A stretch of DNA of 34,894 nucleotides, taken from contig NIVC01004797.1 of assembly GCA_002269645.1 (NCBI GenBank), positions 1-34,894 on the forward strand, read 5' to 3'. This DNA is from Macrostomum lignano. Lineage: Eukaryota. Shown here one piece after another: positions 1-27,008 of the stretch; the first letter of the stretch is position 1, and every line of letters begins with the position of its first letter. Below the pieces are notes generated by a model, which worked only from the letters and a program-made list of their open reading frames with translations, had not been told where the DNA came from and did not search any database. Position numbers and translations under genes: made by a program.

Positions 1-237
1 TGGGGAAAGGAAGTCGATTTTTCTGACTGAGCTGCTTGAAGACAGGTTTATAACTAGAAGATTTGGGAGCACCCTCGACTGAAGATTCAGATACTGGCTG
101 TGCAGTGAGAAATTCGTTGCTGCACTACAGTTGGCTTAAGCCAAAGTTCTGCATCAACTTAAGAAGCGAGCAGTGTCCGTGGCACACGAGCAGTAAAGTT
201 GGCAGAAGCAGATTTGGTGAAGAAGTTGACGATCGAA

Positions 238-810
238 ATGAGCCCACCAGCTACAGCCCTAAGAGTGACCAATCTGGTTGGCGGAGTAGATCTGAGACTG
301 GATGGTGGCAGGGGCGCTCAGCTGCCTCTACGGGAACTGGCTCTCAGCATGGCTCATGTGATCTACCGGCCCGTCTGGCCCCGGGTGCTCATCAAGCGGA
401 TGCGGATTCCCAGAGTGACTCTCCTACTCTACCCTACTGGGCAACTGAGCATCTGCGGTGCCAAGACCCACGCAGACGCCAAAAGGGCTGCCCGTCGCTT
501 CGTGGCTATGCTGCATCGGAGAGTGCCGGCTCAACTGCTGCCTCATCAAACAATTTGTGTTCGAATTAAAACTATTACTGCTCATGGACAGCTCCCAGTT
601 CATTCCGCACTTTCCTTATTAATGTTAAAATCAATTATCCCAAACGCCGAATATGAACCAGAATCCTTTTCTGCTTTAATTTTCAATTTAAACTTTTGTA
701 AATGTCTGCTTTTTCACAGCGGCTCTTTTGTTCTCAGTGGAGCTCGGTCCTTGAATCAGTTGCATACCGATAGCATGCGTCTACTCAATGTAGTTCTTTC
801 CATTGAATAA
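238..810 (+). CDS. Divergent TATA-binding protein (TBP)-like protein, 190 aa from the first ATG, intronless
   Basis: Two TBP repeats: VTNLV...VIYRP...RMRIPRVTLLLYPTGQLSICGAKT...AARRF and AEYEPESFSALIF...CLLFHSGSFVLSGARS (compare canonical YEPELFPGLIY and LIFVSGKVVLTGAK). The ORF-track start at 199 is TTG; the first ATG is at 238. The stop overlaps AATAAAAATAAA (poly(A) signals). Confidence 0.85.
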   Translation: MSPPATALRVTNLVGGVDLRLDGGRGAQLPLRELALSMAHVIYRPVWPRVLIKRMRIPRVTLLLYPTGQLSICGAKTHADAKRAARRFVAMLHRRVPAQLLPHQTICVRIKTITAHGQLPVHSALSLLMLKSIIPNAEYEPESFSALIFNLNFCKCLLFHSGSFVLSGARSLNQLHTDSMRLLNVVLSIE

Positions 811-1392
811 AAATAAAGTCAAGTCAAGCAATTTGCCGCAAATATTTCAATGATTAGTGAAAAGTGAATAAAAGGATAAACTTGGTATTCTTTACATTCA
901 TTTTCCCAGGCAGACAGCTATGGAACACTTCAAAAACGTATTTAGCCCATCACCAAAAGTATCGCAAAACGCATATCAAATCCGAAAGTAAACAATACTA
1001 CCATCGTTATAACAAACGATGTGCACCGAGAGAAGAGAAATAGAAAAGTGATAGAGAAAATATGATTAAAACGCTGATTGAATTTACAGGAACAATTTGT
1101 GTCAGATAAAAACCAAAAACACATTTTAAACAAGTAGTACACAAAGCAAACAAAAATGAATTAATATTGTATGAGCGCACTTGCCACACAGCTTTATAAA
1201 AAGTAAAACTTAAATTGATATCAATATTTCACGCCGCAAAAACAAATTGACAGCTAAATCTAGCGCAATTAGCCAAGCATACAAATTTGTAAAAGTTACT
1301 ACATGCAAGTCACTACATTTAAAACAGAATTTGGCAATTTAAACAACTCTAAAAGCAAGAAAAAGTACTAAACAGTCTGTTAAACACCCGCA

Positions 1393-4300
1393 CTAGACCA
1401 GTCGGATGCGCTTCAGCTGATCGTGGGATGCGGGCGTCAGCGCATAGTGTCCGTAGGGCAGGCTTCGATTACTGCTAAGCCACACTCGCTTATCCTCCCA
1501 CACCGATAGGCTTCTTTTCTCCATGACCGACGTGAAGATTTCGTGTTTCTTGGAAACAATCGCTGTCATGGCAACCATCTGCTCTTGCTTGGACTCGAAC
1601 GCGTCGACATAGTTCGCATGCGAAATTTGCTGTCTTACTACTGACTGCTTCACGCCTTTGGCAGTTTTCTTGATCTTTGCACTCGAATTCTCGGCAGGGA
1701 GAAACGAATAAAGTTTTGGACGCAAAAGAATCCACTCCTGGTAAATTCCACCAGCAGATTCATCTTTAACGCAGCCCAGCTTTCCTTTTAACTCTTCAGA
1801 GAAATGCGGATGGTCTCGAGAATAGTTGGATGTGTCAAGTATTTTTTCCTCTCTAAGCTTCGGGATTACCTCCGATGTTAAATCATGATTCTTGAAAGCT
1901 AGAAAAAATGAGTCAGTATCACCTCCGCAAAGCATCATGTCTCTGGAACCGTCTGAATGACAGAACAGCGGTCGGAGCCTGTCATATAGTAGGCTGTACA
2001 TGGCCATCTTAGAGAGATCGAGAACTGCCTGGCCAACGAAAATGGCCTTGTCAAGCGTGACTTTATCTTTTTTGAGCTGAAAAATGCTCAACGACTCATT
2101 GATAATCGAGAATGCGGCACAGTTTGGTCGAGAGGCGCAAGTTTCTGCTTGAGTCTGGTTAGTGCAAATTCGAACATCGCATCTTTTTCGAACGTTCTCC
2201 ATAGTTTTTCCAAAGAGAGAATTGTTTTTCAATTTGTAAAAATCCTTAGCAAACTCGGAAGTTGCCAAAGCTCTTTTTTCATTGTTGCTGGCAATGTACG
2301 GCGCGAAAATATTTTCCTGCTTGAACGAAATCATTTTTTTGACGCACTTGATCCGCATTCCGTGTTGCAGGTAAAATCTTAAAACGGTGCTGTGAACTAC
2401 GTAAGAATCCTTGTCGGTACAGGTGAGTAGAAGCTTCTCCGTTGCTTGAAACTTAGCTTCAGCATTGCCAGTTCGCTGTTCAGCAATCTCTTTCCATAGT
2501 TCGGCCATGTACGGCGAGAATTGATCTGGCTGTGGTTTTGATTTTTCAGGTGCAAACGGTAACTCCTGAGTCGAATCGTGAATCTCAGCTGGGTATTCTA
2601 GATCGAGTTGAACAAGGTAGGCGATCTCGGCTTCTGGATTGAGTGACAGAAACCGATTGGAGTCCCAGAACTGGATTTCCTGTTCCGGTACCCACCTGAA
2701 TTCCCTGCATGGAAGCGGAAGCGACAGGGCAAAGCCATACAAGTTGTTCATATCGATCGGCATGAGGCTTACACTCTCTTGCTGATCATCATAACCTGGC
2801 AAGCTAGGATTATTACCTTTGACGCAATGCACATTAATGAAGGACATGCCTCCTCGTATTCCCTTCTCAAACAGATGATACATGTCAGCATCAGTCAGCT
2901 GCTCTAGAACCACTCCAGTCGACTTTAGAGCTGAGTCGTAAGACAAACCAGGAGTAGTAAAGTAGTGTACCGGATCCAATCCGTCCTCTTTCAGACTGGC
3001 CTGTCGGAATGTCTCGAAAATGTCAGCCAGCTGCCTTACATCCATTTCAAGATAGGCGAGCATATAATCCTTCAAACTTTTGCATTGAAATGCCGCCCAT
3101 GCCGCTCTTGCTCTATTGTAGTCGTCGTCGGAAATTCCCCGATCGGAAAGTCGATTAAAAAAAGCATCTTTAGGCGGCAAAACCGACTGCTCGAGAATCT
3201 CAAATCCTGTGAGGTAATCATATGGGAAAATCCCTTTTTTTCGAAGTAGCTCTCTTGAAAGATGTGGTCTTGACTCAAGCATTTGCATTGTCAGCTTGCA
3301 TTCAGCTTCGGGAAGATTAGCAAACAAATTGGACAAACTTCCCTTCAAAAAGCAGAGCGAGTCGATGAACTGAATTGTAAACATGATTGGCACAACTTTT
3401 CCGTTCTTTACGTAACTTGCAACAGGGAATTCCGCCCTTAGTGACAAGTATCGCTCGGATGATTGCGGAACAACACTAAGTTTCCAATTTTTCATGCTCC
3501 CAAGCGCAGTGGAAAGTAGAAGATGAAGGTCGTAGCCGCCTAAGTTGTGAAAAACCAGGGGCAGAAACCGGCGTCGGAGCTGTGCTCGCAGGTTGCATTC
3601 TTGACATGCTGCACCTTTGTACTGTCCATTTAAATGATCGTGGTCAAAATGTTTATCTGTAGAACTTTTAAAGTTCTTCTTGCAGTAGTGACATACCTCA
3701 GCAGAATTGAAATCATCCATGACGGTCGCGGATGATCGGTCAGCCGGCTGGTGGCTATGCTTCTGGTTCCAGTGAAATATATCCTGAGCCAGGCTTTCAA
3801 GAGATTTGAGAAAACCAAGGATACACTCATCAGGGTCCGCATTGCAAAAGACCTTGTACATGTCTCCTTCTGGCCTAAGCGGAGGTCCTGTCATGCCTTC
3901 ACGAGGCACTGCAAGAAAAGCTGCTGCACATGGTTCATGCTTTGAGATCAGGTTAGCAGGGTCTGTGTTCGCTCGCAAAATGGCTTCCAGGTCGGCATAG
4001 GCAACGAATGGTGGACTGACAGTGTTTTGACAGTTTCGGAACTTTATTTCATTCTGTCCTGGAACTGGAAGCGTTTCTTTGACAGGATTTTCTGCAGTAA
4101 TGCTGCATTCGTTCCTGTGCTCTTGAAGCCTCTCGTTGCTATAAAATGATGTTAAACATTTCGTGCACCACTTCCTCATGGCGGGACCATTACGACTGTT
4201 CATTAACCTGTCAAAATTAGTAATTGCACACCAGTGCTCCGATCCGTAGCTGTCTTTAACTAGCAAAAGCATGAGGTGTCTTCGGTCATCTGACTCATGC

Positions 4301-5042
4301 TTGCGGCGACGGAGAAGAGTCACACTGCCCTGCTGCCAAGAGAACGCAGAAATGCAAATTCCTGGATTGTTAGACTCGACGCGATCGATATCAGCGACAC
4401 ACACTGGCATGGAGATTTCTGCAAAGTCCAGCTCACGCAACCATTCATCGTAAGAGGATATTCTGTTGGGCGATTTCTGAACTTTCGGATCGGCGCTGTG
4501 CAGTGCAGCGAGACAGGCGTACAGGAAACAGTCTTTGCCTGTGCTCGGTGGATTGATAACAGCCTTTTTGTTCTTCAAACTGGCAGGAAGATTGAATCTA
4601 ACGGCTCTGCCCTGGCGAAATCGAATTGGATTGTACCTGGCAAGGTTGATGTCTAGAAAATTAATTTGTTTAATTGTCCAGCCACTGCCGTTCGTATTAA
4701 TCATACTACAGATCCTCTCCAACTCCTGCTCCTGCTCAATCAACCAGTTGTTTAAACGGCCTGCTTCACCACCTAGGTCTAGGGCCTGCATTTTACAGCT
4801 TATCCATCTGTCCTCTTCGGCAAGCATCTCCCCATCTCTTATTCGGACCATTCGAATATTCGCCTTTAGCTGAACTTTGTAATGATGTCTTGAAATTCTT
4901 TGCTGAACTGCCTCAATAATTTTGTCTCCAGCTTGGACAAAAAATTCTGACGGAAGCGTGTCTGGGTGACTCGATCTGAGCCTCAGTATTTCCAGTGATT
5001 GATCATAGGCTTGGGCAACTCTGCTGAAGCTGACTGTTGAAC
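1393..5042 (-). CDS. polB: Protein-primed family B DNA polymerase (pPolB), main exon, with C2H2-like finger and inserted endonuclease VII-like domain
   Basis: Exo I YADLEA, Exo II FHNLGGYD, Exo III YLEMD; Pol motifs DMNNLYG, KLKNNSLFGK, GDTDS; N-terminal GSGW and KKAVINP...DCFLYA motifs; CHYC...DHDHLNG...CQECN insert. The frame is open 64 codons upstream of the ORF-track ATG (4851), up to a CAG acceptor ending at 5043. Confidence 0.95.
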
Positions 5043-5274
5043 CTGGTTTGTGGTTTTAGGATAATATTTTTGTTTTTTGCTGCCTATAGTTTCAAATATC
5101 AAAGATACTAAACTAAACGTCTGTACCCAAGCATACATGTACAACCCTACCGGTATAAAGTCTTTTATCTCCCCTTCTCCCATTCTTTGGACTAAAATTT
5201 TAGACTGCATAATATACATCGCATTGATAAGAAAATTTTTAAGTAAGTTGAAAAGGATAAATAAAGGCACTTAC

Positions 5275-5707
5275 CTTGGTGTGCATCAGTCACCGACTCG
5301 CTGTTGGCTGCTGACTCGCTGCTGGCTGCTGACTCGCTGCTGGCTGCTGACTCGCTGCTGGCTGCTGACTCGCTGCTGGCTGCTGACTCGCTGCTGGCTG
5401 CTGACTCGCTGCTGGCTGCTGACTCGCTGCTGGCTGCTGACTCGCTGCTGGCTGCCGACTCGCTGCTGGCTGCCGACTCGCTGCTGGCTGCCGACTCGCT
5501 GCTGGCTGCTGACTCGCTGCTGACGTCATGGTCCACCCAAGGGTGGTCATACTCGATCCACGAGTGGCCATTCTCCATCCACGAGTGGCCATTCTCCATC
5601 CATGAGTGGTCATTCTCCATCCATGAGTGGTCATTCTCCATCCATGAGTGGTCATTCTCCATCCATGAGTGGTCATTCTCCTGCTCCATCCAGGAGTGCT
5701 CAACCAT
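5275..5707 (-). CDS. Putative first exon of polB encoding (MENDHSW)n and (SESAAS)n repeats
   Basis: ATG at 5707 is the first Met after an in-frame stop. There is a consensus donor AAG|GTAAGT after 5275 in phase 1, matching the phase-1 acceptor CCAG|GT at 5043/5042. The joined product reads ...TDAHQ-G-STVSFSRV... and is 1360 aa. Confidence 0.65.
5296..5522. repeat. 18-bp tandem repeat CTGACTCGCTGCTGGCTG, about 12-13 copies (SESAAS on the minus strand)
   Basis: Directly visible near-perfect tandem units. Confidence 0.95.
5545..5700. repeat. 21-bp tandem repeat CATGAGTGGTCATTCTCCATC, about 7 copies (MENDHSW on the minus strand)
   Basis: Directly visible tandem units with divergent end copies. 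Confidence 0.9.
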
Positions 5708-6591
5708 AGAAAAGGCAAGCAGTTAAAAGCTGACAGTGTTTACTGGCTGCAACTGAGTGTCATAAGCAACTGGGAGTGAATATTTGAAATCTTTTTTCGT
5801 AAGTCTTTATTGCTGCAATACTGGTACAATATCCACACTTACAAGCTAGTAGATGCTGGTTATATTTTTTTGGTTCTCCCTTAAGCTAGCTCTCTGCATG
5901 CATATTCTATTGATCCCTATTCGTAAAAGTTCGTTTCTATTTGCCTCCTACGCAGACTCAATCGGTAAAAAATGCAAAATGAAGCCAATAGTTAATTAAC
6001 AAACCAATCACCGAGTGGAAAAATGCTGACATTATATATATATTTTTTAAAAAAATATCGAATTCACATGGTGCAATCATAGTCAATAAACAATGCATGG
6101 AACAATGAATTACAAATACAGACGAGAGTTTAGAAGCAGAAATATAGCTGAAAAGTTCAATAATTAAAGAATGAGGAAACACCGCATCAAAGCAGTAGAA
6201 AGAAAATTATACCTAATCAATCGCACCAAGCATACGAAACCATCACCAATTTATTGAAAGTATGTTATGTTGATTTTAATTTGTTAAATTCAACTGTATA
6301 ATGTTTCACCTACTTTTCAAATAATTTTTTTTTACCTCGGATACCAAAAAAATATTGGTTGCCACTACGAGCTACGAGCTTTTTTTAAAACTAATTTGGA
6401 AATGAAAACTGAAAACTTATAAGCAAGATTCCTAGAAGCGAATACAGAGTTATGAGATGATCAAATCATTAATTAATGTACCTACTTTCAACTTTAAAAA
6501 GCTAGTTGAAATAAAGTTTTAGCAATAATTGCAATAAATGGGTAGATTTCTCACTCCACACAGAAAGCAAAAAAGTACAAAAATTGCTTAG

Positions 6592-7992
6592 TCACAGCGG
6601 CACAATTCTAATACGATTTTCGAAAATCGTTACCTCGTACCCAGCCCCGCCGACAGGAGGCAGAAAGAAGGCAACTCCAGCTGGCACGGGTGGAGTTTCG
6701 GATTGAGAAGCTGGAATTGTAGAGGCTGCAGCTGGGGCGGCTGGAGCAGCTGGGGCAGCCAGAGCAGCTGGGGCGGCCAGAGCAGCTGGGGCGGCTGGAG
6801 CAGCTGGGGCGGCCAGAGCAGCTGGGGCGGCTGGAGCAGCTGGGGCAGCCAGAGCAGCTGGGGCGGCCAGAGCAGCTGGGGCGGCCAGAGCAGCTGGGGC
6901 GGCCAGAGCAGCTGGGGCGGCCAGAGCAGCTGGGGCGGCTGGAGCAGCTGGGGCGGCCAGAGCAGCTGGGGCGGCCAGAGCAGCTGGGGCGGCCAGAGCA
7001 GCTGGGGCGGACAGAGCAGCTGGGGCGGCCAGAGCAGCTGGGGCGGCCAGAGCAGCTGGGGCGGCTGGAGCAGCTGGGGCGGCCAGAGCAGCTGGGGCGG
7101 CTGGAGCAGCTGGGGCGGCCAGAGCAGCTGGGGCGGCCAGAGCAGCTGGGGCGGCCAGAGCAGCTGGGGCGGCCAGAGCAGCTGGGGCGGCCAGAGCAGC
7201 TGGGGCGGCTGGAGCTGCAGGTGGCACAATTGCATTATGCGACTCATTGTCGCTGCCCTCCTCTTCTAGGATTTCCATTTCGTGGTCGTCTTCAATTAGA
7301 TGAAGTTGTTTTCCAGCAATCACCGGAACCGAAGAGACAGGTTGCTGCTGCTGCTGCTGCTGACCAGCGTTGAATTCCCTGAGGAACTGATCCAGGACAT
7401 CTTCCTCTATGAAGTTTATGACAGCAGCAGCCTCGACTCCAGCAGCCTCGACTCCAGCAGCCTCGACTCCAGCGGCCTCGACTCCAGCAGCCTCGACTCC
7501 AGCAGCCTCGACTCCAGCAGCCTCGACTCCAGCGGCCTCGACTCCAGCAGCCTCGACTCCAGCAGCCTCGACTCCAGCAGACAGCTCAACTTCAAATTCT
7601 GCAGCTGCTGAAGACCCGCTTGGCCTCATCCTCTTCAATGTAGAGTCAATTACTTGACTCAAGTGAGCTGATAGCAGACTCCTGCTGGCTCCCTTTTTCT
7701 GCTGGCTCTTCTTTTCTCTCTCGTTGCTCTTTTTGATGGCGCGGATTACTTTCCAGCGGTTACTTTCTTGCTTTTTCTTGTCATCGCTGACGATCTTGTG
7801 TCCTCGATGATATGCTGGAATTTTTCCCTCCTGCAGAGCTTCGACGGTGCCGCACTGGTCGCATGCCAACCAGCATGAGACCAGACAGTTCTCATTCTCG
7901 TGGTGTCTTGGGGACACGCCTCCAAGCAGGCACACTTCGCAGCTTATACAGACCTCATAGAGGTCTCTATGACAACTTTTAAAAGTTTTCAT
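6592..7992 (-). CDS. Hypothetical 466-aa protein: Cys/His-rich N-terminus, basic segment, AAGVE repeats, Gln run, acidic patch, Ala/Pro repeats
   Basis: Long ATG-initiated ORF with non-repetitive N- and C-terminal parts, an AT-rich leader and TATAAAAG about 50 nt upstream. No family recognised. Confidence 0.7.
   Translation of the reverse strand: MKTFKSCHRDLYEVCISCEVCLLGGVSPRHHENENCLVSCWLACDQCGTVEALQEGKIPAYHRGHKIVSDDKKKQESNRWKVIRAIKKSNEREKKSQQKKGASRSLLSAHLSQVIDSTLKRMRPSGSSAAAEFEVELSAGVEAAGVEAAGVEAAGVEAAGVEAAGVEAAGVEAAGVEAAGVEAAGVEAAAVINFIEEDVLDQFLREFNAGQQQQQQQPVSSVPVIAGKQLHLIEDDHEMEILEEEGSDNESHNAIVPPAAPAAPAALAAPAALAAPAALAAPAALAAPAALAAPAAPAAPAALAAPAAPAAPAALAAPAALAAPAALSAPAALAAPAALAAPAALAAPAAPAAPAALAAPAALAAPAALAAPAALAAPAALAAPAAPAAPAALAAPAAPAAPAALAAPAALAAPAAPAAPAAASTIPASQSETPPVPAGVAFFLPPVGGAGYEVTIFENRIRIVPL
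6727..7215. repeat. 18-bp tandem repeat GCTGGGGCGGCCAGAGCA and variants, about 27 copies (AAPAAL/AAPAAP)
   Basis: Directly visible; built from two 9-bp sub-units. Confidence 0.95.
7425..7580. repeat. 15-bp tandem repeat GCAGCCTCGACTCCA, about 10 copies (AAGVE)
   Basis: Directly visible. Confidence 0.95.
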
Positions 7993-8042
7993 TTTGAAAG
8001 AGAAAGAGTTGTTTTTTAGAAGTAGTAAGGTTTTTAAAAATC

Positions 8043-8050
8043 CTTTTATA
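8043..8050 (-). promoter_or_regulatory. Candidate TATA box (TATAAAAG) for the 466-aa ORF
   Basis: Exact TATA consensus 51-58 nt upstream of the ATG at 7992; function inferred from position only. Confidence 0.45.
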
Positions 8051-8321
8051 CAATTTGTTTTTGTCTATTTGTTTATTTGTACTTGCGTGGCTGCTTATAT
8101 AGTAATTTGTACATGCATGCCCTCTCCTTATCATATCGTATATGAACATCCAGCCATGCTCAGGTAATAATTACTTTACCGTTATAGAGGCCACTGGCTG
8201 TAATTAGTGTATCCCCCCCGTCCCCTTATCCAGGTAAGCAACACCAGCCGTCCTCTGTGCAGTTGTAAAACTTTATAACCTTACCCTAACACAGAGCACA
8301 GAGATTGGCCACCCCTCTTAT

Positions 8322-8806
8322 CTCTGCAATGTTTAGCCGTTCCCAATGCACAGAGATAGGATCCTCTCCGCAGTGTATTTTTCCTATATCCTTTTTGCCG
8401 CCTATCTCGCCAGCGCTAGTGCGGCAGTATCATGAATCGCCTCTATCTCCGCAGTGCTTAGCCGTCCCCAATGCACAGAGATAGAGCTCATATCTCTGCA
8501 GTGCTTAGCCGTCCCCAATGCACAGAGATAGAGCTCATATCTCTGCAGTGCTTAGCCGTCCCCAATGCACAGAGATAGAGCTCATATCTCTGCAGTGCTT
8601 AGCCGTCCCCAATGCACAGAGATAGAGCTCATATCTCTGCAGTGCTTAGCCGTCCCCAATGCACAGAGATAGAGCTCATATCTCTGCAGTGCTTAGCCGT
8701 CCCCAATGCACAGAGATAGGGCTCATATCTCCGCAGTGTATTTTTCCCTATACATTTGCATTGCCGCCTATCTCGCCAGTGCTAGTGCGGCAGTATCATA
8801 ATTCGC
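8322..8806. repeat. 47-bp palindrome-containing tandem array (six copies at 8451, 8498, 8545, 8592, 8639, 8686, plus a diverged copy near 8325) with a duplicated flanking block; probably part of the element's terminal inverted repeat
   Basis: Unit GCAGTGCTTAGCCGTCCCCAATGCACAGAGATAGAGCTCATATCTCT; block 8370-8440 recurs at about 8733-8806. Confidence 0.95.
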
Positions 8807-11118
8807 CCTACTACTAAAGGGTCTTCCATTGCAAATTTGAGGCCGATTCTCTCCGCCGTGCCCCTCATACAAAACTGCAACTGGGGTTCAGAATGGGTCG
8901 GCAGAATGGATGCATCCCGATAAAGAAATCCTGCCTTCCAGGCGCGGCACTGGTCAGCAAGTGCTTTTTCTCTCTGAACTGCATCGCTCACAAGCATACA
9001 AGCACATTTTCAGCGGCTTGCTGGAATTTCTCGATCTTGTTATGGGATGCTGAACGGTAGGGAAAAATTGCACCCAACTTTTTCCTTCATCATCATGCCC
9101 TTGTTCCTACCGAAGCGCACAAACAATTAAAACAGAGAAGCACTTTTTATTGCACTTGCTGCTTGCTGCGGTTCGAACGGTTTCCCGTCCGCTCTGCCTC
9201 ATTATCCGACATCCACAACTTGTTATCGCAGAACCTTCGTTCTGTACAAGCGCAAAGCATGCACAAAGGCTTGCATTAGCGTTTTATTTTCCCAGGCAAA
9301 GACGATGAATGCATGCGTCTAGAGAACTTTTTTTACATGTAGTCCTATGAATTTCGGCTGACTGGCAATGTCTTTAGCATTTGCAGACAGAGAATCGATA
9401 AAATCTAAAAGAATTAGCAAGGCAGCTGTTGGATAGCCAGCACGCTTTAATTCACGCTTGAATACAAATCATTCGAGATCTTAACCGGAATTAGTCTAGG
9501 GCTCTATGCTATTACTGTTCTGCATGCATTGGAATCAGTTGCTTTGGTGCCAATAATTTTCATTCGATTCATTCAGGATGCTCGCTCCCACTGCAGAATA
9601 GTTCCGTATGGAAGCAACGTGGTGGGCAGAATGGAAGAAACGGCTTTGGGTGCACCGGGTGCAGTTCATGGAGGGAAAAAGATTTCGGACTAAATGGTTG
9701 CGTAGCTCTGGTAAACAAAATGGCCGAGACTTTGCTTGTCGACTGTGTATGTTGGCCAGTGTGGTTTTGCAGTGGGGACAGAGTGCGTAGCTGGGGCTTG
9801 GCCCCTCGGTGCGTGCACATCTCTATCCGCCACGAAGGCCGATCAGGATCAAGCAGCCTCACGATGAAGCCCACACAACTTACTATATTTAACCGTAAGC
9901 CGCAAAACTTCTGATCTTCAAAGTTCCACGCCCAAAGCAAAAGTTTTAGGGAAACGCAATTCGATGCCATTTCCTAGCTCATACCATATTCTAGTCTTTG
10001 CGGGGGTAACTTATCATAGTAAAAGGTCACACTCTGCCAATCTTTTAGCCACTTGCATACTGCAGCTACCGCAGCAACCGGGAATTTGTTTAGCGGATAC
10101 CATTTTGTACAATTGAAGTCAGTTAGAAAAGTACAAATGTTGCGAGCCCTGATGATCTGAAGGCGAAGCGTAAATGCAAAGCTTGTAGTGCATTAAGTAT
10201 GCGAACGTGTTGAAAACCGCATCAAGTTCCATTCGAGAAGTTGGTGGAAAAATAATTGGACACGTGATCAGCGCTAGAGTGTAGGTTTGGAGAGAGCGTA
10301 AGTTTTACGCACTAAATCAAGCATAAAACATAAAACTGGAGCTAGCATTCAAGTGATTTCCAACGTATAGCTGACGCAATAAAGCGTCCAAAAGGCTAGA
10401 GTTGGTTCTTTTTTATTTCCTTGGTCCTGCGTGGAAGGAAATCGAAACAATTCAGTTTTACTTCTGTCTTTGCTTGCTTTGCTTGCTTCCCCTCTAAATC
10501 GAGTTCAACGAAACGATTATCTTTACATTAATAAAAAATAAATTGTGAAACATGCGTAACTTCTATATTAACTTTAATTTTGTAAATTTTTTTGTTTGCA
10601 ACCTCAACAGAACATTAAAGGTTGAATATTTTCTAAACCAATTTGTCATGTAGAGGTGGGGAAAAATCTCGACATAAAAATTGCAGGCTCCGAAAGTCAA
10701 GCCCATATTTTCTGAGACGGCTTACGTTACCCGTGCACTCATTTATGTAGAAAATTCTGTAATTTCGGAACTCATTGCGGGTGATGTGACAGAACCCTAT
10801 CAGTCTGTTGTAAGGACAGGACAGTTTTTAAATTAGAAAATCGCGATGAACAATTATAACAAAAAGAGTCAAATTAAAGTGCTTTTTTGGCCCAAGACAG
10901 GTAAAGGAACCAGAAAGATTATTTTTAAAACGTGAAGTTTTTTTATACGCAACAATTTTCTGATTAGGCATTGTTTTTACTAATCAGCTGATCAGCCTTG
11001 ACAAATCATATGATTCGCCGAGGTAACTACTAAATTCTAACTCAGTAATCGTTACTAAAGGTCAAGCAGTTTTTGTGACGCAGCACAGCGATTGATTTTA
11101 GAAGCGTTCTTACTAAAG

Positions 11119-13746
11119 ATGTCTTCGCCTAGCCCAGGAAAACGCAGAATGGACACGGATGTTGTCAAACTGTATCCTTTGCTTTGGTTATTTCACTTTT
11201 TAAGACTCAACTGAAGAGTCAAGGGGCCTTATAAATAGTATAAAATTAATTACATTGTAAAATCAAGACAAAATAGGGCCTACTAGTTTTGAATGAGCAT
11301 ATATCAGATATATAGGCAATATATATATATAATACCCTGCAACCTTCCTGCAAGGAATTATTCTTGTGTACCATATCAAAATTTGTTTCAAAATTTACCT
11401 AAAAATTAACAAGAAATTAAATTGCTAATAGGTCTGTGTTTCCTAATCAAATATGCTGAAACTGGTTTGAACAAAAACAGTAAGAAAATAATTGGTAATA
11501 ATTTATAAGAGATAAGAAGTGTTGTGGATATAAGAGCTTATTATAAGTCTAAAAATATTTTTAGATATTGAGTCAGTTTCAAGTAAAGTAGTAAATAGGC
11601 TATTTTTGATAAACATTAGTTATCAATCAACCAATAAGGAAAGTTCTATCTCTTTTAAAGTATAGCAAATCTATCAAATCTATACCAAAGCTTAGGCTCA
11701 TATCTATTTTATTTAAAAATCATTTAATTTATGTAAAAAGATAAGCCTACTATATTACACATATATGTAATACAAATATGCAGTTTTAATACTTATAGTT
11801 ATGAACCATTTTTAGTATATGGATATAAAGTATATAATAGCTTTGTAACTTTCTAAATATTAGTAATATTTTTATACTTTATACTTTAGGAATTGGCCTT
11901 TATAAATATAAATATTGGTTAAATTGGTTTTAGTTTAATACAAAGTTGGCTAATGTCTATTGTAAGATTTATACTAACATTTTTTATTTCTATTTTACTT
12001 ATTTAAATATATTTTCTTGTTTATAGTCATAATTTTTATAATGTCCTTAACTTGGCATAATTTAACTATGCTAAAAATAGCATTGAAAGTAAGCATGAAG
12101 TCACTATACTTGGAGGACTAAATGAGTTCACTGTGAAATTCTATGGTCCTACAGACTGTAAGTAATTGTTTTGATAAATCTAAATCCTATATTTTAGTCT
12201 CTATTTATTCAATTTATTTATGAATATAACTCCAATTTTAGCTCCATATGAAGGAGGTGTATGGAAAGTCAGGGTAGACTTGCCTGATCGCTATCCATTC
12301 AAATCACCATCAATTGGTAAGCTTCAATTGGCAAAATTTTTTACTTCAAAGGCCAGATAAAGAACCTAACTAATGGCTTCAGCCTAGAGAAGAGATAATA
12401 GAAGAGAAATAGAAGAAGAAAGATAAATGGATAGATGAAAGAAGAGAGGAAAGGCAAGAGAGGAGATATAAGATAAGATATGGAATGAAAGAAAAGATAG
12501 GAGAGAAGATAAGAAGAGAAGAGGGTAGAGGGGTGCAGCAACTTTTTAGTCATTTCTTCACTTTATCTGCACTTGTCTCTGTTTTCTTGTCTTATCTATG
12601 CTCAACCCCCCCCCCCCCACTATTTTAATGACTTAAATAGAGCAAGGGTTGTTGAGTAAGAAAAGGAGGGGTGGAGTGCGCGACAAAAGAAAGAGGCGAG
12701 ATTGAAGAACCAATCAGAAGGCAGCAAGGGGGAGAGATAAGAATTACAAGCTAAAAGATTGAAGAACCAATCAGAAGGCAGCGAGCGGGAGAGATAAGAA
12801 TAACAAGCTGAACTAGGCAGAGAGGGAGAGAAAACATAGTAAACAGAGACGAGTGCAGATAAACTGAAGAAATGACTAAGAAGTTGCGACAAGAGCTGAG
12901 TAGAGACCTTGAGCGGGCTGGAATTTGTCGACCCTTGGTCGAGATTGAAATATTTTTTTGATTTTCCATTTTTTGCTATCCTTTGATAATCTGCACAAAA
13001 CTTGGTAATTTCAATTGCAGGCTTTTTAAACAAGATATTTCATCCCAACATTGACGAAGCGTGAGTTTATAGAGCAGATTTTATTTTAGTTTCTATGAAT
13101 AGACTGGTTTCTAGAAAACCAATTGTTGTTTGGCTATTTTAACATTAACATGCAAAGTGGCTCAATAATCTTTACATATTTAGATCTGGCACCGTGTGCT
13201 TGGATGTCATTAACCAGACTTGGTCTGCACTTTATGGTGAGTCGAAACTATCAATTACAACACGGGTGCCAGGTATCCAGATGAGAGTCGGCCTATGAGA
13301 ATCAGGAGAGAGTCGCGCTATGAGATTCGAAATGATATCGAGATGGTGTCAAGATTGAGTGGGATGCCAGGTTTTCAGTTTAGAATGCAAAAATCTGGCA
13401 ATATGAATGTTCTTATTCTTTTGGAATCTTGCTGCTAACCGTACTAAATCTTGCCCTCTGCCCAGACCTCACCAATATATTCGAGTCGTTCCTGCCGCAA
13501 CTGCTGACCTACCCGAACCCCATGGACCCGCTGAACGGGGACGCAGCCTCGCTCTATCTACACAGGCCGGACGATTTCAAGCAAAAGGTGCGCGATTATG
13601 TCCAGCGCTTCGCCACGGAGTCGGCCATCCGATCGCAGGACTTGCCTGGCGCGATGTCCTCGGAGGAGGAAGACGGCGAGAGCTCGATGTCGGAGTTCAG
13701 CGACGAGGAGCGGCCAGACGGAGGCGCTGAGGATATGGAGCTCTGA
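11119..13746 (+). CDS. UBE2H: Ubiquitin-conjugating enzyme E2 H (Ubc8 orthologue), 192 aa, six coding exons: 11119-11171, 12081-12157, 12242-12316, 13021-13060, 13184-13236, 13466-13746
   Basis: The joined exons (53+77+75+40+53+281 = 579 nt, all GT-AG, phases consistent) read [34 protein letters not shown]...[69 protein letters not shown]...EDMEL. HPN motif, catalytic Cys and acidic tail are present. Confidence 0.98.
11172..12080 (+). other. UBE2H intron 1, probable U12-type (minor spliceosome) GT-AG intron
   Basis: 5' splice site GTATCCTTT; branch-point match TCCTTAAC at 12044-12051; no polypyrimidine tract before the AG (CTAAAAATAG). Confidence 0.8.
12701..12810. repeat. Two 57-bp direct repeats in UBE2H intron 3, each with AACCAATCAG
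   Basis: ATTGAAGAACCAATCAGAAGGCAGC... at 12701 and 12758. Confidence 0.85.
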
Positions 13747-22018: not shown

Positions 22019-22832
22019 TTACTTACAGTACCTAATACAGTGATTAGTGTTAGGTTGAGCATTGTTGTGCAACAGAAGGTGAGGCTTCATCGCAGTCCTG
22101 CGCTTGTTGCGAATGTCAGATTTCAGCTTGGTCAGTGTCTCAGCGTAGCGATCCGAGTTAATCGTGCTGTTCGGCTCGAGAAAGTCGATGGTCAGCGGAT
22201 CTTCTTGATCGAAGAAGAAGGTCAGCATGATCTTCTTGCAGTACTGGTCTCGTTTTGCCTTCACAGATGAATCTGAACCCTTCAACGCCCATACCTTGCT
22301 CTCCTGCTTTGTCTCCGGGTCAAAGTGCGGAATCCAGGTCTCGTCGCTGGTCACCACATACGGTCGGAAACTCTCCCACCCACCGGCATCCTGAGCCAGC
22401 TCAAGATTCTCCCTGCAGGACTTCATTCTTGCAGCTTTCATTTCTTTCATCAACAAACGGGGCACCAATCTTGCCGATAGCTTCACCATGCCAAGATTCT
22501 CCGCCAAAATTCGGTAAATTGACGTTTTTGGGCTCCCCAGCCCATTTGCCATCTTTTTTGCGGTGGAACGGGGATTTTCTTGAATGAAATCCTTTTTCAA
22601 CTAGGGCCTTAGTTGATGAGGAAATGGGACAGCCACGGCTGGCTGTGTCATCAGCAACGTCCGTTCACCCTTGGCTGAACTCTTCGATCCACCGGTAGAC
22701 TGCACTCTTCGAAATCGCGCCTGCTCCGTGGATGTCAGTGAGCTTGCTGACAATTTTGCTGCCTCGCTTCCCAAATCTCCACTGGGAATACACAAACTGG
22801 CGTTGACCTTCTTTAGATGAAACGCTAAACAT
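22019..22832 (-). pseudogene. Mariner (Tc1/mariner, Mos1-like) transposase pseudogene, 3'-truncated
   Basis: ATG at 22832, HTH region ...ISKSAVYRWIEEFSQG*TDV (stop, then frameshift), ENPRST, ARLVPRLL (WVPHEL-like), VTSDETW, KKIMLTFFFD, LLHNNAQP (second catalytic D changed to N); the third Asp/YSPDL region is missing. Confidence 0.92.
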
Positions 22833-23470
22833 TTAACAATTGAACGAGGGAGAACAGAAAAGATGAAATCAACAATGCTGTCTTGTCGTGATCGAAGATC
22901 AGTACCGTGATTTCAAATGCTTCTTGCAGCTTTACGCCGGTGCCACTGATGTTTTTTGTGCTGTTCTGCTTCTGCATTTGTTTTAGATTAGCTTCTGCTT
23001 TTTCGAGGGCTTATGTGTGCTTTTGTTTCTCTTCAGCTTCTTCGTTTGCTTTTGTTTTCGGATCGATGGTTCTGACTAAAGATCAAAAATTTAGTCTATG
23101 GTCTAGCATAGTAGGCTCGACTTGGTGTAACTCTATTCACTACCCCTTGTTCTAATTATAGACAAAACTTTTGAATGAGTTGACATTTTTACCCAATTTA
23201 AATAAGCAAAACAACCGTTGAATATTTTTAAATAATACAGGGACAACTAAAACCCTCGGGACGCGAAACGAGCCAATTCATGGCAAAAAATCTGAGGGGC
23301 TCGCTTAAAAGTATTGTTCTATGGCTTTTTAAAGTCTTCTCTGCTATCAGGCATTAACGGTTAGATTAAATAGTAAAGCGAGGCAATGTCGAGTATTTAA
23401 TTTAAAGAATAGGAACCAGTGATATAATTACAATGTAATTTACAATAAAGTAACCGCCATATCAACAAAA

Positions 23471-23635
23471 AACTCCAACGGCAAGAAGATAAAAGATGAA
23501 AGCAAAGATATAACTCCAACGGCAAGAAGATAAAGGATGAAAGCGAAGATGAAACTCCAACGGCAAGAAGATAAAGGATGAAAGCGAAGATGAAACTCCA
23601 ACGGCAAGAAAATAGAAGCAAATACGGAACTCCAA
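23471..23635. repeat. 41-bp tandem repeat AACTCCAACGGCAAGAAGATAAAGGATGAAAGCGAAGATGA, 3 full copies plus partials, at the P element 3' end
   Basis: Units at 23471, 23512, 23553, 23594. Confidence 0.9.
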
Positions 23636-23724
23636 GGACAAGACGACACAAACAGTCAGTAGCTCGTACATAAAGGAAACGCTGGAACTTCACCTACTGA
23701 GCATTTAACTTCCGAAGCTTTCTA

Positions 23725-26530
23725 TCATGGGATGTCGTCGGTATTGGTGGGAGTTTTGACGAGCGTCTTACTAGTCCTTTGAAAAAAACGTTGGCTAGCC
23801 GACGGGACACTGTCCATGCTGAACTGTGTGTTAGTTGGAAAGTAAAAGTCCTTAATAACATAAAACAGCTTCTGCACGCGAGTTGCGCACGTAGGAGAGT
23901 GCAGAATAAAACTGCTGTAGCAGAGACAGGATAAGTCTAACAGCCATTGTGGAGGATGACAAAGCTTTCCGCGAGATAACTCTTCAGTGAATTCGCTGGC
24001 TGGAATGCTCGTCTCTGATATCAAATCTGTTCCTTTGATGCCTGCCTTCTTTAGTCGCTGTATAACCTGTCAATTTCCAATTAAGCACGGTTTGAATTGT
24101 TTTGATGAGATTGTGTAAAACCTCGTTGTGAATTAAATTTTAATTAATATCCAGCTTACCTGCGATATAGTGTAGAGCGAAGCCATCTCCGAAATGGAAA
24201 GCTCCTCTGATTTAGCAGCACAATTATCAATGGTCGCCAGTTCAATTTCATTCAGCTGTTCATTGCAACATTTGCTCCGATCGTGCTTGTAGTCTGCTAA
24301 TTCAAGGGATGTCAATAATTTCATTCGTCGGAGTCGAGCACTGAGCAGCACTTGCTCCACAGATACATAGTAGTTGCCGCCGCTCATTTGGCGATATACG
24401 CCAGCCAGCCAGCAGAACGTAGCTGATTCGTGGGTCGGACAAAAGAACCTCACACATCTCACAGGCTCCGCGCAGTGAGTTTACTAGCGCTGACTTGGTC
24501 TCGGGCGTCAATGAATGATGGCGAGCTCGGCCTTTTCCACAATGTGTCGAATCAAACGAATCCGCGAGCGCGCTAAGAAATTGTATGCTTTCATCTTGAA
24601 CGGAATAGACTGGTCGCCTGTCCGGATCCCGTAGTCGTGCGTGTAGATCAGGATTTTTACAATTGACAATTTTCCAGAATCTCACTATGGTTTTGATAAA
24701 TTCCGCAGTGTCTGAGTATCCATCACACTTCAATGCAGCGGCAACCCTTTCATCGAGAACTTGGAGAGCGAGACTGACTTTAGTTTTCTGAGTGCTTGTG
24801 GGATAACAGGCCTCATGAGTTAGACATGTGCGCTTGACTACGTGGTCTTTCTCCATTTGGTACAGGCGTACCACGTCTGACCATTTAGCGGATATCTGTC
24901 TGTCAGCGCCAGGAGGTTGAATGCTTAGAATTCCATTCGCTTCCATTTGCCAATTGTTGCGAATGCATTTGATAATGTGAACGAAATCGAACAGCATGAA
25001 GAATTCCGACTCCTGTGCAGCATCCGTTCCAATCCATGGCTTCTCTCTTCCATCGCTAAATAAAGCAAAACACTTGCGGTTGGTCGGGTGATTGTCGCTG
25101 ACGAGAGCAACGACACGGCCACCGTTGTTGTTAATTGCTTTAATACATTGGCTGACGCATTTTCGCAGAAACTCCGCAGACAAAATGTATGTCGGCAATA
25201 GTCGGACTACAAACGGTTTTCCACCAAGTAATGGCTTTACCATTATGGCCAAAATTGTCCTAGCAACCTGGTCCGGATCGTCGACGGCTCGACCCAGGTG
25301 ACGGCATCGATATCGAACGGACGGTTGTATGTACATTTCGTCAAACATATTACGCAGTTTCGCTGAGCTCCTGATAGACTAGCAAAAACTGACTGGATCA
25401 CATCGGCTGCGTCGGTTTCTGTGCCAACTTCTCCTGTACCTGCTAGTTGCAGCTGCAGCGTTCGGGGATGAGGCAATGGCAATAGCTTCCGTAGGTAAGA
25501 GTAAGCCGAACTACTGATCAAGTAGAGCAATGCTGACTGTCGCACTAGTGAAATGTCATAGCGGCGATTGTTCCGATTTACTAATTTAAGGCTAAGTTGT
25601 CGAATCAAAAACTGAAGCGACCGATCCAAATCAGAGTCAGAATCTATATCATCACTGATTCTACTAACAAACGCTTCGACTTCACGTTGGGGATTGGCGT
25701 CGGAATTTTTGCACCGCACGACAACAGCATCCAGTTGCGACCAGCGTCGGTTGAAATCCCAACAAGTCTCGAACCGAAATCGGTGTATGCAGTTTGAATG
25801 CACGAATCAGAAAGTTAGGTGAGACAAAAATTCGAACAGACAGGTCTCCATCTTTATCTAACGTAAACAAGTAAATGTCTTCGTTCAGAATAGCTGTATT
25901 CAGTGCATGTCGAGATACGATATCCGAATTTTTCACCTCAGCTCGAAAACTTTCCCATGCCGGCAAAAAATCAAGCAGCTGAAAAGCGTCCATCTCATCG
26001 ATGTCGCTGCACCTCGCGTCAGAAAGAACACCGCGCTTTTCGGCCTGTCGGTCTTGGTCTAAAATAAGAGTAAAAATAAAAGTAAGATAATTGTGAGCGG
26101 CAAAATCGATATAGACGCTAAGTGTTGAGCAATCTTTAAGTTACGTACCTTGGTTCTGAACAAAACACGAGCTAGGAACTCCATTAAAAACAGAAGGAGG
26201 ATTAATTGGCCTTTTGGTAGAGTTTTTCTTGAACATTGGAGCATCGCTTGGCCAATGCTTTACGCACACGCCCATATTGTCAGTCACTCTCTAAAATAAT
26301 AAATTTTGGGTTTCAAGTTGTTTGGACGAGACTGGCATGCAGAATTGAAGCGGAATTATGCAGCAGTAATGACAGCAAATGATCTGGTTTCTTACCTGGA
26401 GAATATTTGGCAGCGCCTTTCTCCATCGCTCTCGCTCCTGTGGATCTCTGGGAAACGCAAATGTCCGTGTTCGAACGGCTTCAGAGTTGTAATTTGACGA
26501 GCACGGAAATACGCTGCACTTTCTTGGCAT
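23725..26530 (-). pseudogene. Spliced THAP-domain P-element transposase pseudogene
   Basis: Exon 26530-26396 (MPRKCSVFPC...FAFP...RERW), exon 26290-26149 (GVCVKHW...PPSVF), exon from 26058, then SAYSYLRKLLPLPHPRTL, FDEMY, VSDNH, FDFVHIIKCIRNNW, KVSLALQV, YRQMSGGNY, a further intron near 24160-24070, and SEFTEELSRGKL. At least five frame disruptions. Confidence 0.92.
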
Positions 26531-27008
26531 TTCATCAAGTGAATAAAAAATGCTTCTCTTGATATAGTTCAGCTTAGCTTCACTGCTGGCCGCAGCTAAA
26601 GCAATTTTAATTTGCCTGATTGCAGAGAAGACTTGAAAAAGCCATAGAACAATACTTTTAAGCGAGCCCCTCAGATTTTTTGCCATGAATTGGCTCGTTT
26701 CGCGTCCCGAGGGTTTTAGTTGTCCCTGAAATAATACTAATGACGCAAGTTGCATAAAATTCGAATACTACAGTCAGCCTCTGTACTGGTTTTTTCTGTT
26801 ATTTCTGGGACAATCCTCGTAAATACGTCGTATTCAAAACATAAAAGATAATAGCGATTCTTGTGATGGAAAGCTATGTAATATGGGCAGAGAAACTCTT
26901 AAAAGGATTTGAGAGTTGTAAAAATGGATAAACCTGTACATATATGACATCGCATAGTCGATCGTCCCGTAGTGCTTATTATAAAAAGGCGCATTTGAAT
27001 AGTGAAAA

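Follow-up and report, generated by a model that had tools for sequence, protein, structure and literature searches.

Few known proteins are as constrained as TBP, and two viral versions of its fold are among the closest known counterparts of the protein described here. The first is KSHV ORF24, which, according to the accessible part of PMC12529657, has a TBP fold with polar residues at V122, T124 and V161, uses this polar face to read TATTWAA late promoters, a private TATA variant placed before late genes, and works with host Pol II; it is a protein of 752 aa that keeps all four Phe residues, lacks the acidic residues for TFIIB and needs five other viral factors. The second comprises the two-lobed TBPs of Nucleocytoviricota: the accessible text of PMC7221094 reports that the stirrup Glu is lost from most viral TBPs (conservation about 40%), which pair with a TFIIB of their own, and that Nucleocytoviricota TBPs keep the Phe at L5.1 in 90%. 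Among mobile elements, Polintons (Mavericks, adintoviruses) carry pPolB, integrase, major and minor capsid, protease and ATPase genes together with terminal inverted repeats and a 6-bp target duplication, and the legend of one figure marks a gene of a related element as TBP-like (Starrett 2021, PMC8502044, accessible part); that same part gives no TBP function, promoter box or residue analysis, and a search of one supplement gave no match. PMC10748475 mentions neither TBP, TATA nor PC4. Our literature search, which ran mostly outside subscription papers, found no Polinton late box tied to a TBP.

The stretch of Macrostomum lignano DNA analysed here (the window, 34,894 nucleotides) holds, at positions 1-8814, one half of a 16.7-kb element. 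Polintons are defined by terminal inverted repeats, a length of 15-20 kb, a 6-bp target duplication and AG...CT ends, and the element shows all of these, with inverted repeats of about 340 bp and a 6-bp duplication (checked at both ends of one copy), and encodes both pPolB and a retroviral-type integrase; it is a Polinton. Its genes include those for a PC4-like protein, a chromo-integrase, a protease (adenain-like match, E 7e-5), a P-loop protein (a weak match) and pPolB. The capsid-candidate ORFs have no Pfam match, and what we take to be the major and minor capsid genes were named from size, order and motifs. In the half seen here, the TBP-like gene (238-810, + strand) is convergent with a protein-primed type B DNA polymerase gene with an endonuclease-VII-like zinc finger (1393-4851, - strand), followed by a repeat-rich ORF of 466 aa without convincing family (6592-7992, - strand) and the terminal inverted repeat (8476-8814), which forms the element end and contains the 47-bp tandem array (8444-8738). 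The repeat-rich ORFs of this polB arm (5192-5707 and 6592-7992) contain variable copy numbers of 18-, 21- and 15-bp units. A second family, B, has the same genes as the family of this element, A, in a different order, TBP and PC4 included. In both families the PC4-like gene lies downstream of a canonical TATA box (L036:280-1053; L070:5538-6176), and its product may be a co-activator or a single-strand binder.

The ORF at 238-810 lacks introns and encodes 190 aa with two Pfam TBP repeats (PF00352, E 7.9e-25). TBPs account for 35 of its 36 PDB sequence matches, and the protein atlas likewise places it in the TBP family. An AlphaFold2 model computed from a 16-row alignment (pLDDT 91.8) shows the complete TBP topology, in which the two repeats make the saddle that marks the family, and the top Foldseek matches are cellular TBPs at TM 0.79-0.84, a range taken from the rows above the target-normalised drop at a 522-aa fusion. 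To number residues as in yeast, we anchored the alignment through the host TBP, which agrees with all 16 yeast DNA-contact residues of Table 1 in PMC12529657. On this scale, the element protein retains N69, V71, T112, L114, E186, E188, F190, L205, F207 and V213. It is substituted in repeat 1 at F99 (P), F116 (Y), S117 (P), V122 (S) and T124 (C), and further at N159 (T), V161 (T), P191 (S), V203 (K) and T215 (S). Thus, two of the four canonical intercalating Phe residues and one of the two central Asn residues are present, as the earlier note had proposed from the letters alone: repeat 2 keeps both Phe residues (F190 is F144, F207 is F159) and its E-x-E stirrup, whereas repeat 1 has Tyr at one site and no Phe at the other, and the Asn of the second half is replaced (N159 is Thr112). 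Located on the DNA, Trp47-Pro48 (376-381) occupy the R98/F99 positions, although an alternative register shifted by one residue may put Trp47 at the F99 site, where family B has His. Tyr65-Pro66 (430-435), at F116/S117, are common to both Polinton lineages introduced below. K111-T112-I113-T114 (568-579) correspond to Q158-N159-M160-V161, Y139-E-P-E-S-F144 (652-669) form the acidic stirrup (E140/E142 for E186/E188) and the first Phe of repeat 2, followed by the Ser at P191, and F159-H160 lie at 712-717. The same note had also pointed to a missing N-terminal extension, which is correct when counted from the first ATG (the stop-to-stop frame spans 215 codons); the difference is small, since in the host TBP, too, no more than about 40 residues precede the core.

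The element protein shares with cellular TBP and TRF2/TBPL1 the fold, the two repeats, F190/F207, E186/E188, N69 and V71, but differs from cellular TBP in its altered DNA face, its intronless gene and an identity to host TBP of about 26-28%. The parallel to TRF2/TBPL1 that had been suggested is a loose one. Loss of Phe is common to both, but the host, which carries separate TBP and TRF2-like genes, has a TRF2-like protein that keeps only F207, bears other replacements and groups with cellular TBPs (support 94, quick tree). Nucleocytoviricota TBPs resemble it as two-lobed viral TBPs, with structural matches in BFVD, but in the element the stirrup is invariant, the N-lobe L5.1 residue is Tyr and no TFIIB was found. 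Like ORF24, the element protein has polar residues at V122, T124 and V161, but it is a bare 190-aa core, which lacks the extra domains of the herpesvirus late pre-initiation factor, has lost both repeat-1 Phe residues and has kept the stirrup; the likeness does not imply common origin. As for closer relatives, the metagenome scan returned 32 loci at 23-33% identity, none of them close, IMG/VR held no related loci with TBP or capsid alignments, and the close homologues outside the Macrostomum lignano genome are short contigs. Other short TBPs carry comparable changes (F-P-x-G, T or S at N159: P0039, P0040, P0080, P0114, P0144, P0083, P0090, P0031 and P0060) and possibly come from other Polintons.

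We then turned to the DNA that such a protein might read. A candidate late-promoter box, CTTAAGAA, lies 80 nt before the TBP start codon (158-165, + strand); it is kept in all 30 close copies and stands before TBP in 16 of 16 subfamily copies compared, once in GCTTAAGAAG context. In the 7.2-kb capsid module of family A1, the degenerate pattern YWTAAGAA (chosen after viewing the data) occurs eight times in sense and never in antisense, against a mean of 1.4 in codon-preserving shuffles, of which 0 of 5000 reach eight. All eight lie 12-149 nt before an ATG and together precede 8 of 10 ORFs, the exact box missing before the protease and 230-aa genes. The related family A2 has seven boxes, six near a listed ATG, and family B has five, of which three are within 160 nt of an ATG (on an ATG list without two short ORFs). 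An unbiased 8-mer scan ranks CTTAAGAA first, with 12 occurrences versus 0.26 expected and none in antisense. As the sites fall in differing reading frames of the upstream genes, the box is not a protein motif. Outside the capsid module of the 16.7-kb copy, polB arm and terminal repeats included, YWTAAGAA is absent, and 26 kb of host flank contain three sites on both strands together. The terminal genes are mostly preceded by canonical TATATAA(G), among them a TATATAAG box that lies 109 nt upstream of the 466-aa ORF (8094-8101, - strand), a candidate early promoter, and in family B a canonical TATAAAAG stands before the TBP gene in place of the private box. Two targets named in the earlier note do not fare well against this distribution: the TATAAAAG site upstream of the 466-aa ORF (8043-8050) is probably not a site because it belongs to the polB arm, which has no box, and the 47-bp repeats are probably not one either, being part of the terminal inverted repeat.

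Searching the genome with the family-B capsid uncovered further Polinton families, a second lineage of four whose capsid is 28-31% identical to that of family A. We had considered these families as TBP-less controls, since a default HMM search of them was empty, and dropped this idea when an unfiltered profile search on longer stretches found a TBP-like frame in seven of eight stretches (E 2e-7 to 3e-3), the eighth, C2158, beginning inside the element; the pairing of box and TBP is therefore assessed among TBP-bearing Polinton families only. The lineage-2 TBP is far more diverged than that of lineage 1. Three of four representatives match Pfam TBP, two of them above the cut-off, and the fourth gives a model with pLDDT 89 whose top PDB matches are all TBP, from an alignment that includes TBP rows and may guide the fold. 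Lineage-2 modules are enriched in a different box, TATAAGCA (14 versus 0.35 expected). TATAAGC occurs 5, 7, 5 and 5 times in sense in the four families and never in antisense, counts reached in 0 of 1000 shuffles each. It is absent from the modules of A1, A2 and B (0, 0 and 0), whereas YWTAAGAA is found 1, 1, 0 and 0 times in the four lineage-2 modules. The two boxes are thus nearly exclusive between the lineages. The distance from TATAAGC to the minor capsid gene downstream is 43-54 nt in all four families, and that to the major capsid gene is 124-165 nt; the lineage-2 TBP gene sits among the polB-side genes with no box before it. A kinase-like P-loop ORF, presumably deoxynucleoside-kinase-like by its motifs, adjoins the lineage-2 TBP (L146, L148, L149, L150) and is in frame with it in the C362/C297 family; one lineage-2 family also has an ORF that we take, by motif, to be dUTPase-like.

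The two boxes, placed on TATA positions 1-8 in an assumed register, share T3-A4-A5-G6, and the TBPs of the two lineages share Y116, P117, S/T122, T/S159, T/S161, the acidic stirrup, F190 and F207. We take V122 to face TATA position 6. Where the boxes differ, so do two contact residues. PMC13566119 (accessible part), citing the crystal series, describes a clash of Arabidopsis Leu-72 with a C or G in position 7. With numbers offset by 42, as also suits the other listed residues, this Leu corresponds to yeast L114; lineage 1 combines Leu at the L114 site with A7, and all four lineage-2 families combine Gln with C7. Likewise, P191 favours T at position 1 (PMC12529657, accessible part), and it is kept with T1 in lineage 2 and lost in lineage 1, where position 1 is C or T. 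The differences between the boxes are consistent with the contact residues L114 and P191, as one phylogenetic contrast between two lineages in an assumed register. It is a plausible if still tentative extension that the coexisting lineages use orthogonal TBP/box pairs under a residue-to-base code (L114/Q with A7/C7, P191 with T1), each turning on its own capsid genes only, in a herpes-like late switch that animal Polintons would run with a single minimal TBP borrowing host TFIIB. If true, this one genome would offer several natural TBP/box pairs and with them a collection of altered-specificity TBPs, and no smaller device by which a DNA virus redirects host Pol II would be known.

The most serious competitor, unlikely though we judge it, is that the late box has a different reader, either host TBP/TFIID or some other protein of the element, the element TBP being a co-factor or an early-gene activator. 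Canonical TBP accepts any base at positions 1, 6, 7 and 8 and A/T at 2, 4 and 5 (PMC13566119, accessible part), rules that both boxes obey, and structures with G in position 6 and C in position 7 are available (1qn5 and 1qn3), so host TBP could read the boxes weakly; moreover, several element ORFs belong to no known family and could supply another reader. A host reader, however, leaves unexplained both why a single host contains two boxes that are strict and nearly exclusive and the matching changes at L114 and P191.

On the sequence evidence, we find it probable that the protein is an element-specific late-promoter factor acting at YWTAAGAA and recruiting host TFIIB and RNA polymerase II; the working principle, a TBP mimic with a private TATA variant, is already known from herpesvirus ORF24. 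The choice of partner follows from the stirrup, which is acidic in all 11 element proteins aligned, and from the result that no TFIIB of the element's own was found: Pfam TFIIB gives 15 matches, all of them at host loci, and a search of 1910 frames with our own profile, which could miss a very remote homologue, gave a best E of 0.03, in an antisense frame. Host TFIIB is thus the inferred partner, with Brf1 a possible alternative through the same stirrup Glu. In the mechanism that we propose, host TBP would read the terminal TATATAAG promoters as those of early genes, the element TBP would then bind the private box before the capsid-module genes, and the retained stirrup would bring host TFIIB and Pol II to the integrase, capsid and packaging genes, resulting in an early-to-late switch. 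The family A TBP gene with its own box (158-165) suggests positive feedback, and its first expression would then need leak or read-through. For the timing of Polinton capsid gene expression, a private box together with a TBP that matches it speaks in favour of a staged programme like that of a virus. The contigs of four presumed RNA runs cover 30 of 30 bins of the element stretch, spacers included, together with spliced host exons and with no cover of the flank; no contig bearing the TBP gene is on record as RNA. We do not count this cover as expression, because DNA carry-over from many identical copies is possible. A direct test is possible in a laboratory animal that carries at least 25 identical copies of the element.

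Of the two functions offered in the earlier note, that of an altered-specificity initiation factor gains a candidate target in YWTAAGAA, while that of a dominant-negative decoy now appears improbable. Such a decoy would keep TFIIB or Brf1 (perhaps also TFIIA/Mot1) off host promoters without productive DNA binding, a role that the invariant stirrup, the two changed Phe sites of repeat 1 and the basic N-lobe helix 2 of family A would suit. Family B, however, has an acidic helix 2, and in lineage 2 the helix shows no conservation. In addition, all 14 element-type proteins compared, a set that spans down to 30% identity and contains two pairs of near-duplicates, have Y65, P66, C73, K111, T112, E140, E142, F144, K155, F159 and H160, and P48 is present in 13 of the 14. 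A concave face fixed in new polar residues over such a distance is needless for a decoy, as is a dedicated, matching box.

The genomic copies point to a protein under constraint. The copy search (231 candidates, 150 scored) gave 152 matches to the protein, 25 of them identical over all 190 residues; the non-identical copies fall into groups at about 89, 80, 77, 75 and 38% identity, the last being family B, and many copies of the gene are broken. Among 13 copies (20 of 78 pairs reported), dN/dS is 0.06-0.38 for repeat 1 (18 of 20 pairs measurable) and 0.06-0.25 for repeat 2 (14 of 20 measurable, six saturated). The altered TBP residues are conserved under purifying selection and do not reflect chance or decay. 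Of the two outcomes that would have refuted the earlier note, four conserved Phe positions and neutral decay of the copies, we checked both and observed neither. The two repeats have separate histories in some copies: one and the same pair has a dS of 0.075 in repeat 1 versus 1-1.9 in repeat 2, DNA identity, about 96% up to codon 110-120, is about 50% beyond it and remains low into a different polB, and capsid modules that are nearly identical continue into a variety of second repeats and polB arms. This mid-gene drop indicates that elements recombined within the TBP gene, the ORFs staying open; the breakpoint zone lies at about 570-600 of the window (loci L046-L061). The TBP gene abuts polB, its second repeat stays linked to the polB arm when elements recombine, and families A and B have a PC4-like gene. 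These features would fit a DNA-bending aid for protein-primed replication or packaging at the terminal repeats, where the PC4-like protein would bind single strands, by analogy with adenovirus origin factors. We regard this role as more doubtful still than that of the decoy, since the box is absent from the terminal repeats and the polB arm, a TFIIB stirrup would be unneeded and no PC4 match was found in lineage-2 elements. Finally, that a captured host TBP is decaying in a transposon, as its low identity to host TBP and the many broken copies might suggest, is scarcely credible in view of a dN/dS far below 1, an intact predicted fold, a TBP in every family examined and the rejection of a grouping of lineage 1 with host TBP (p-AU 3.6e-5, quick tree of 27 rows chosen from 72). 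A single origin of both lineages has a p-AU of 0.495 in the same kind of quick tree, with the base of the tree unsettled.

The first half of the gene is also covered by the tail of an upstream 283-aa ORF (1-569, + strand, broken here near the contig start), which overlaps TBP repeat 1 in another frame by 110-128 stop-free codons in families A and B (window 238-569; L036:7210-8058; L072:6421-7299). In a test designed after this observation, the overlap frame stays open in 1.1% and 0.12% of synonymous reshuffles, and the overlap may have been selected. We considered whether this ORF is the cause of repeat-1 conservation and rejected the idea: 36 of 56 changes fall at TBP third positions, and identity over the overlap is 96/109 in the TBP frame versus 65/108 in that of the upstream ORF, so TBP is the main constraint on the region.

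Beyond the element, about 2.3 kb from its end, the window carries a spliced host gene with five GT-AG introns (11079-13700), which we take to resemble the ubiquitin-conjugating enzyme UBE2H. It is followed by a mariner-type DDE fragment (22019-22552) and a P-element/THAP-type transposon with 121-bp inverted repeats (23233-26733).
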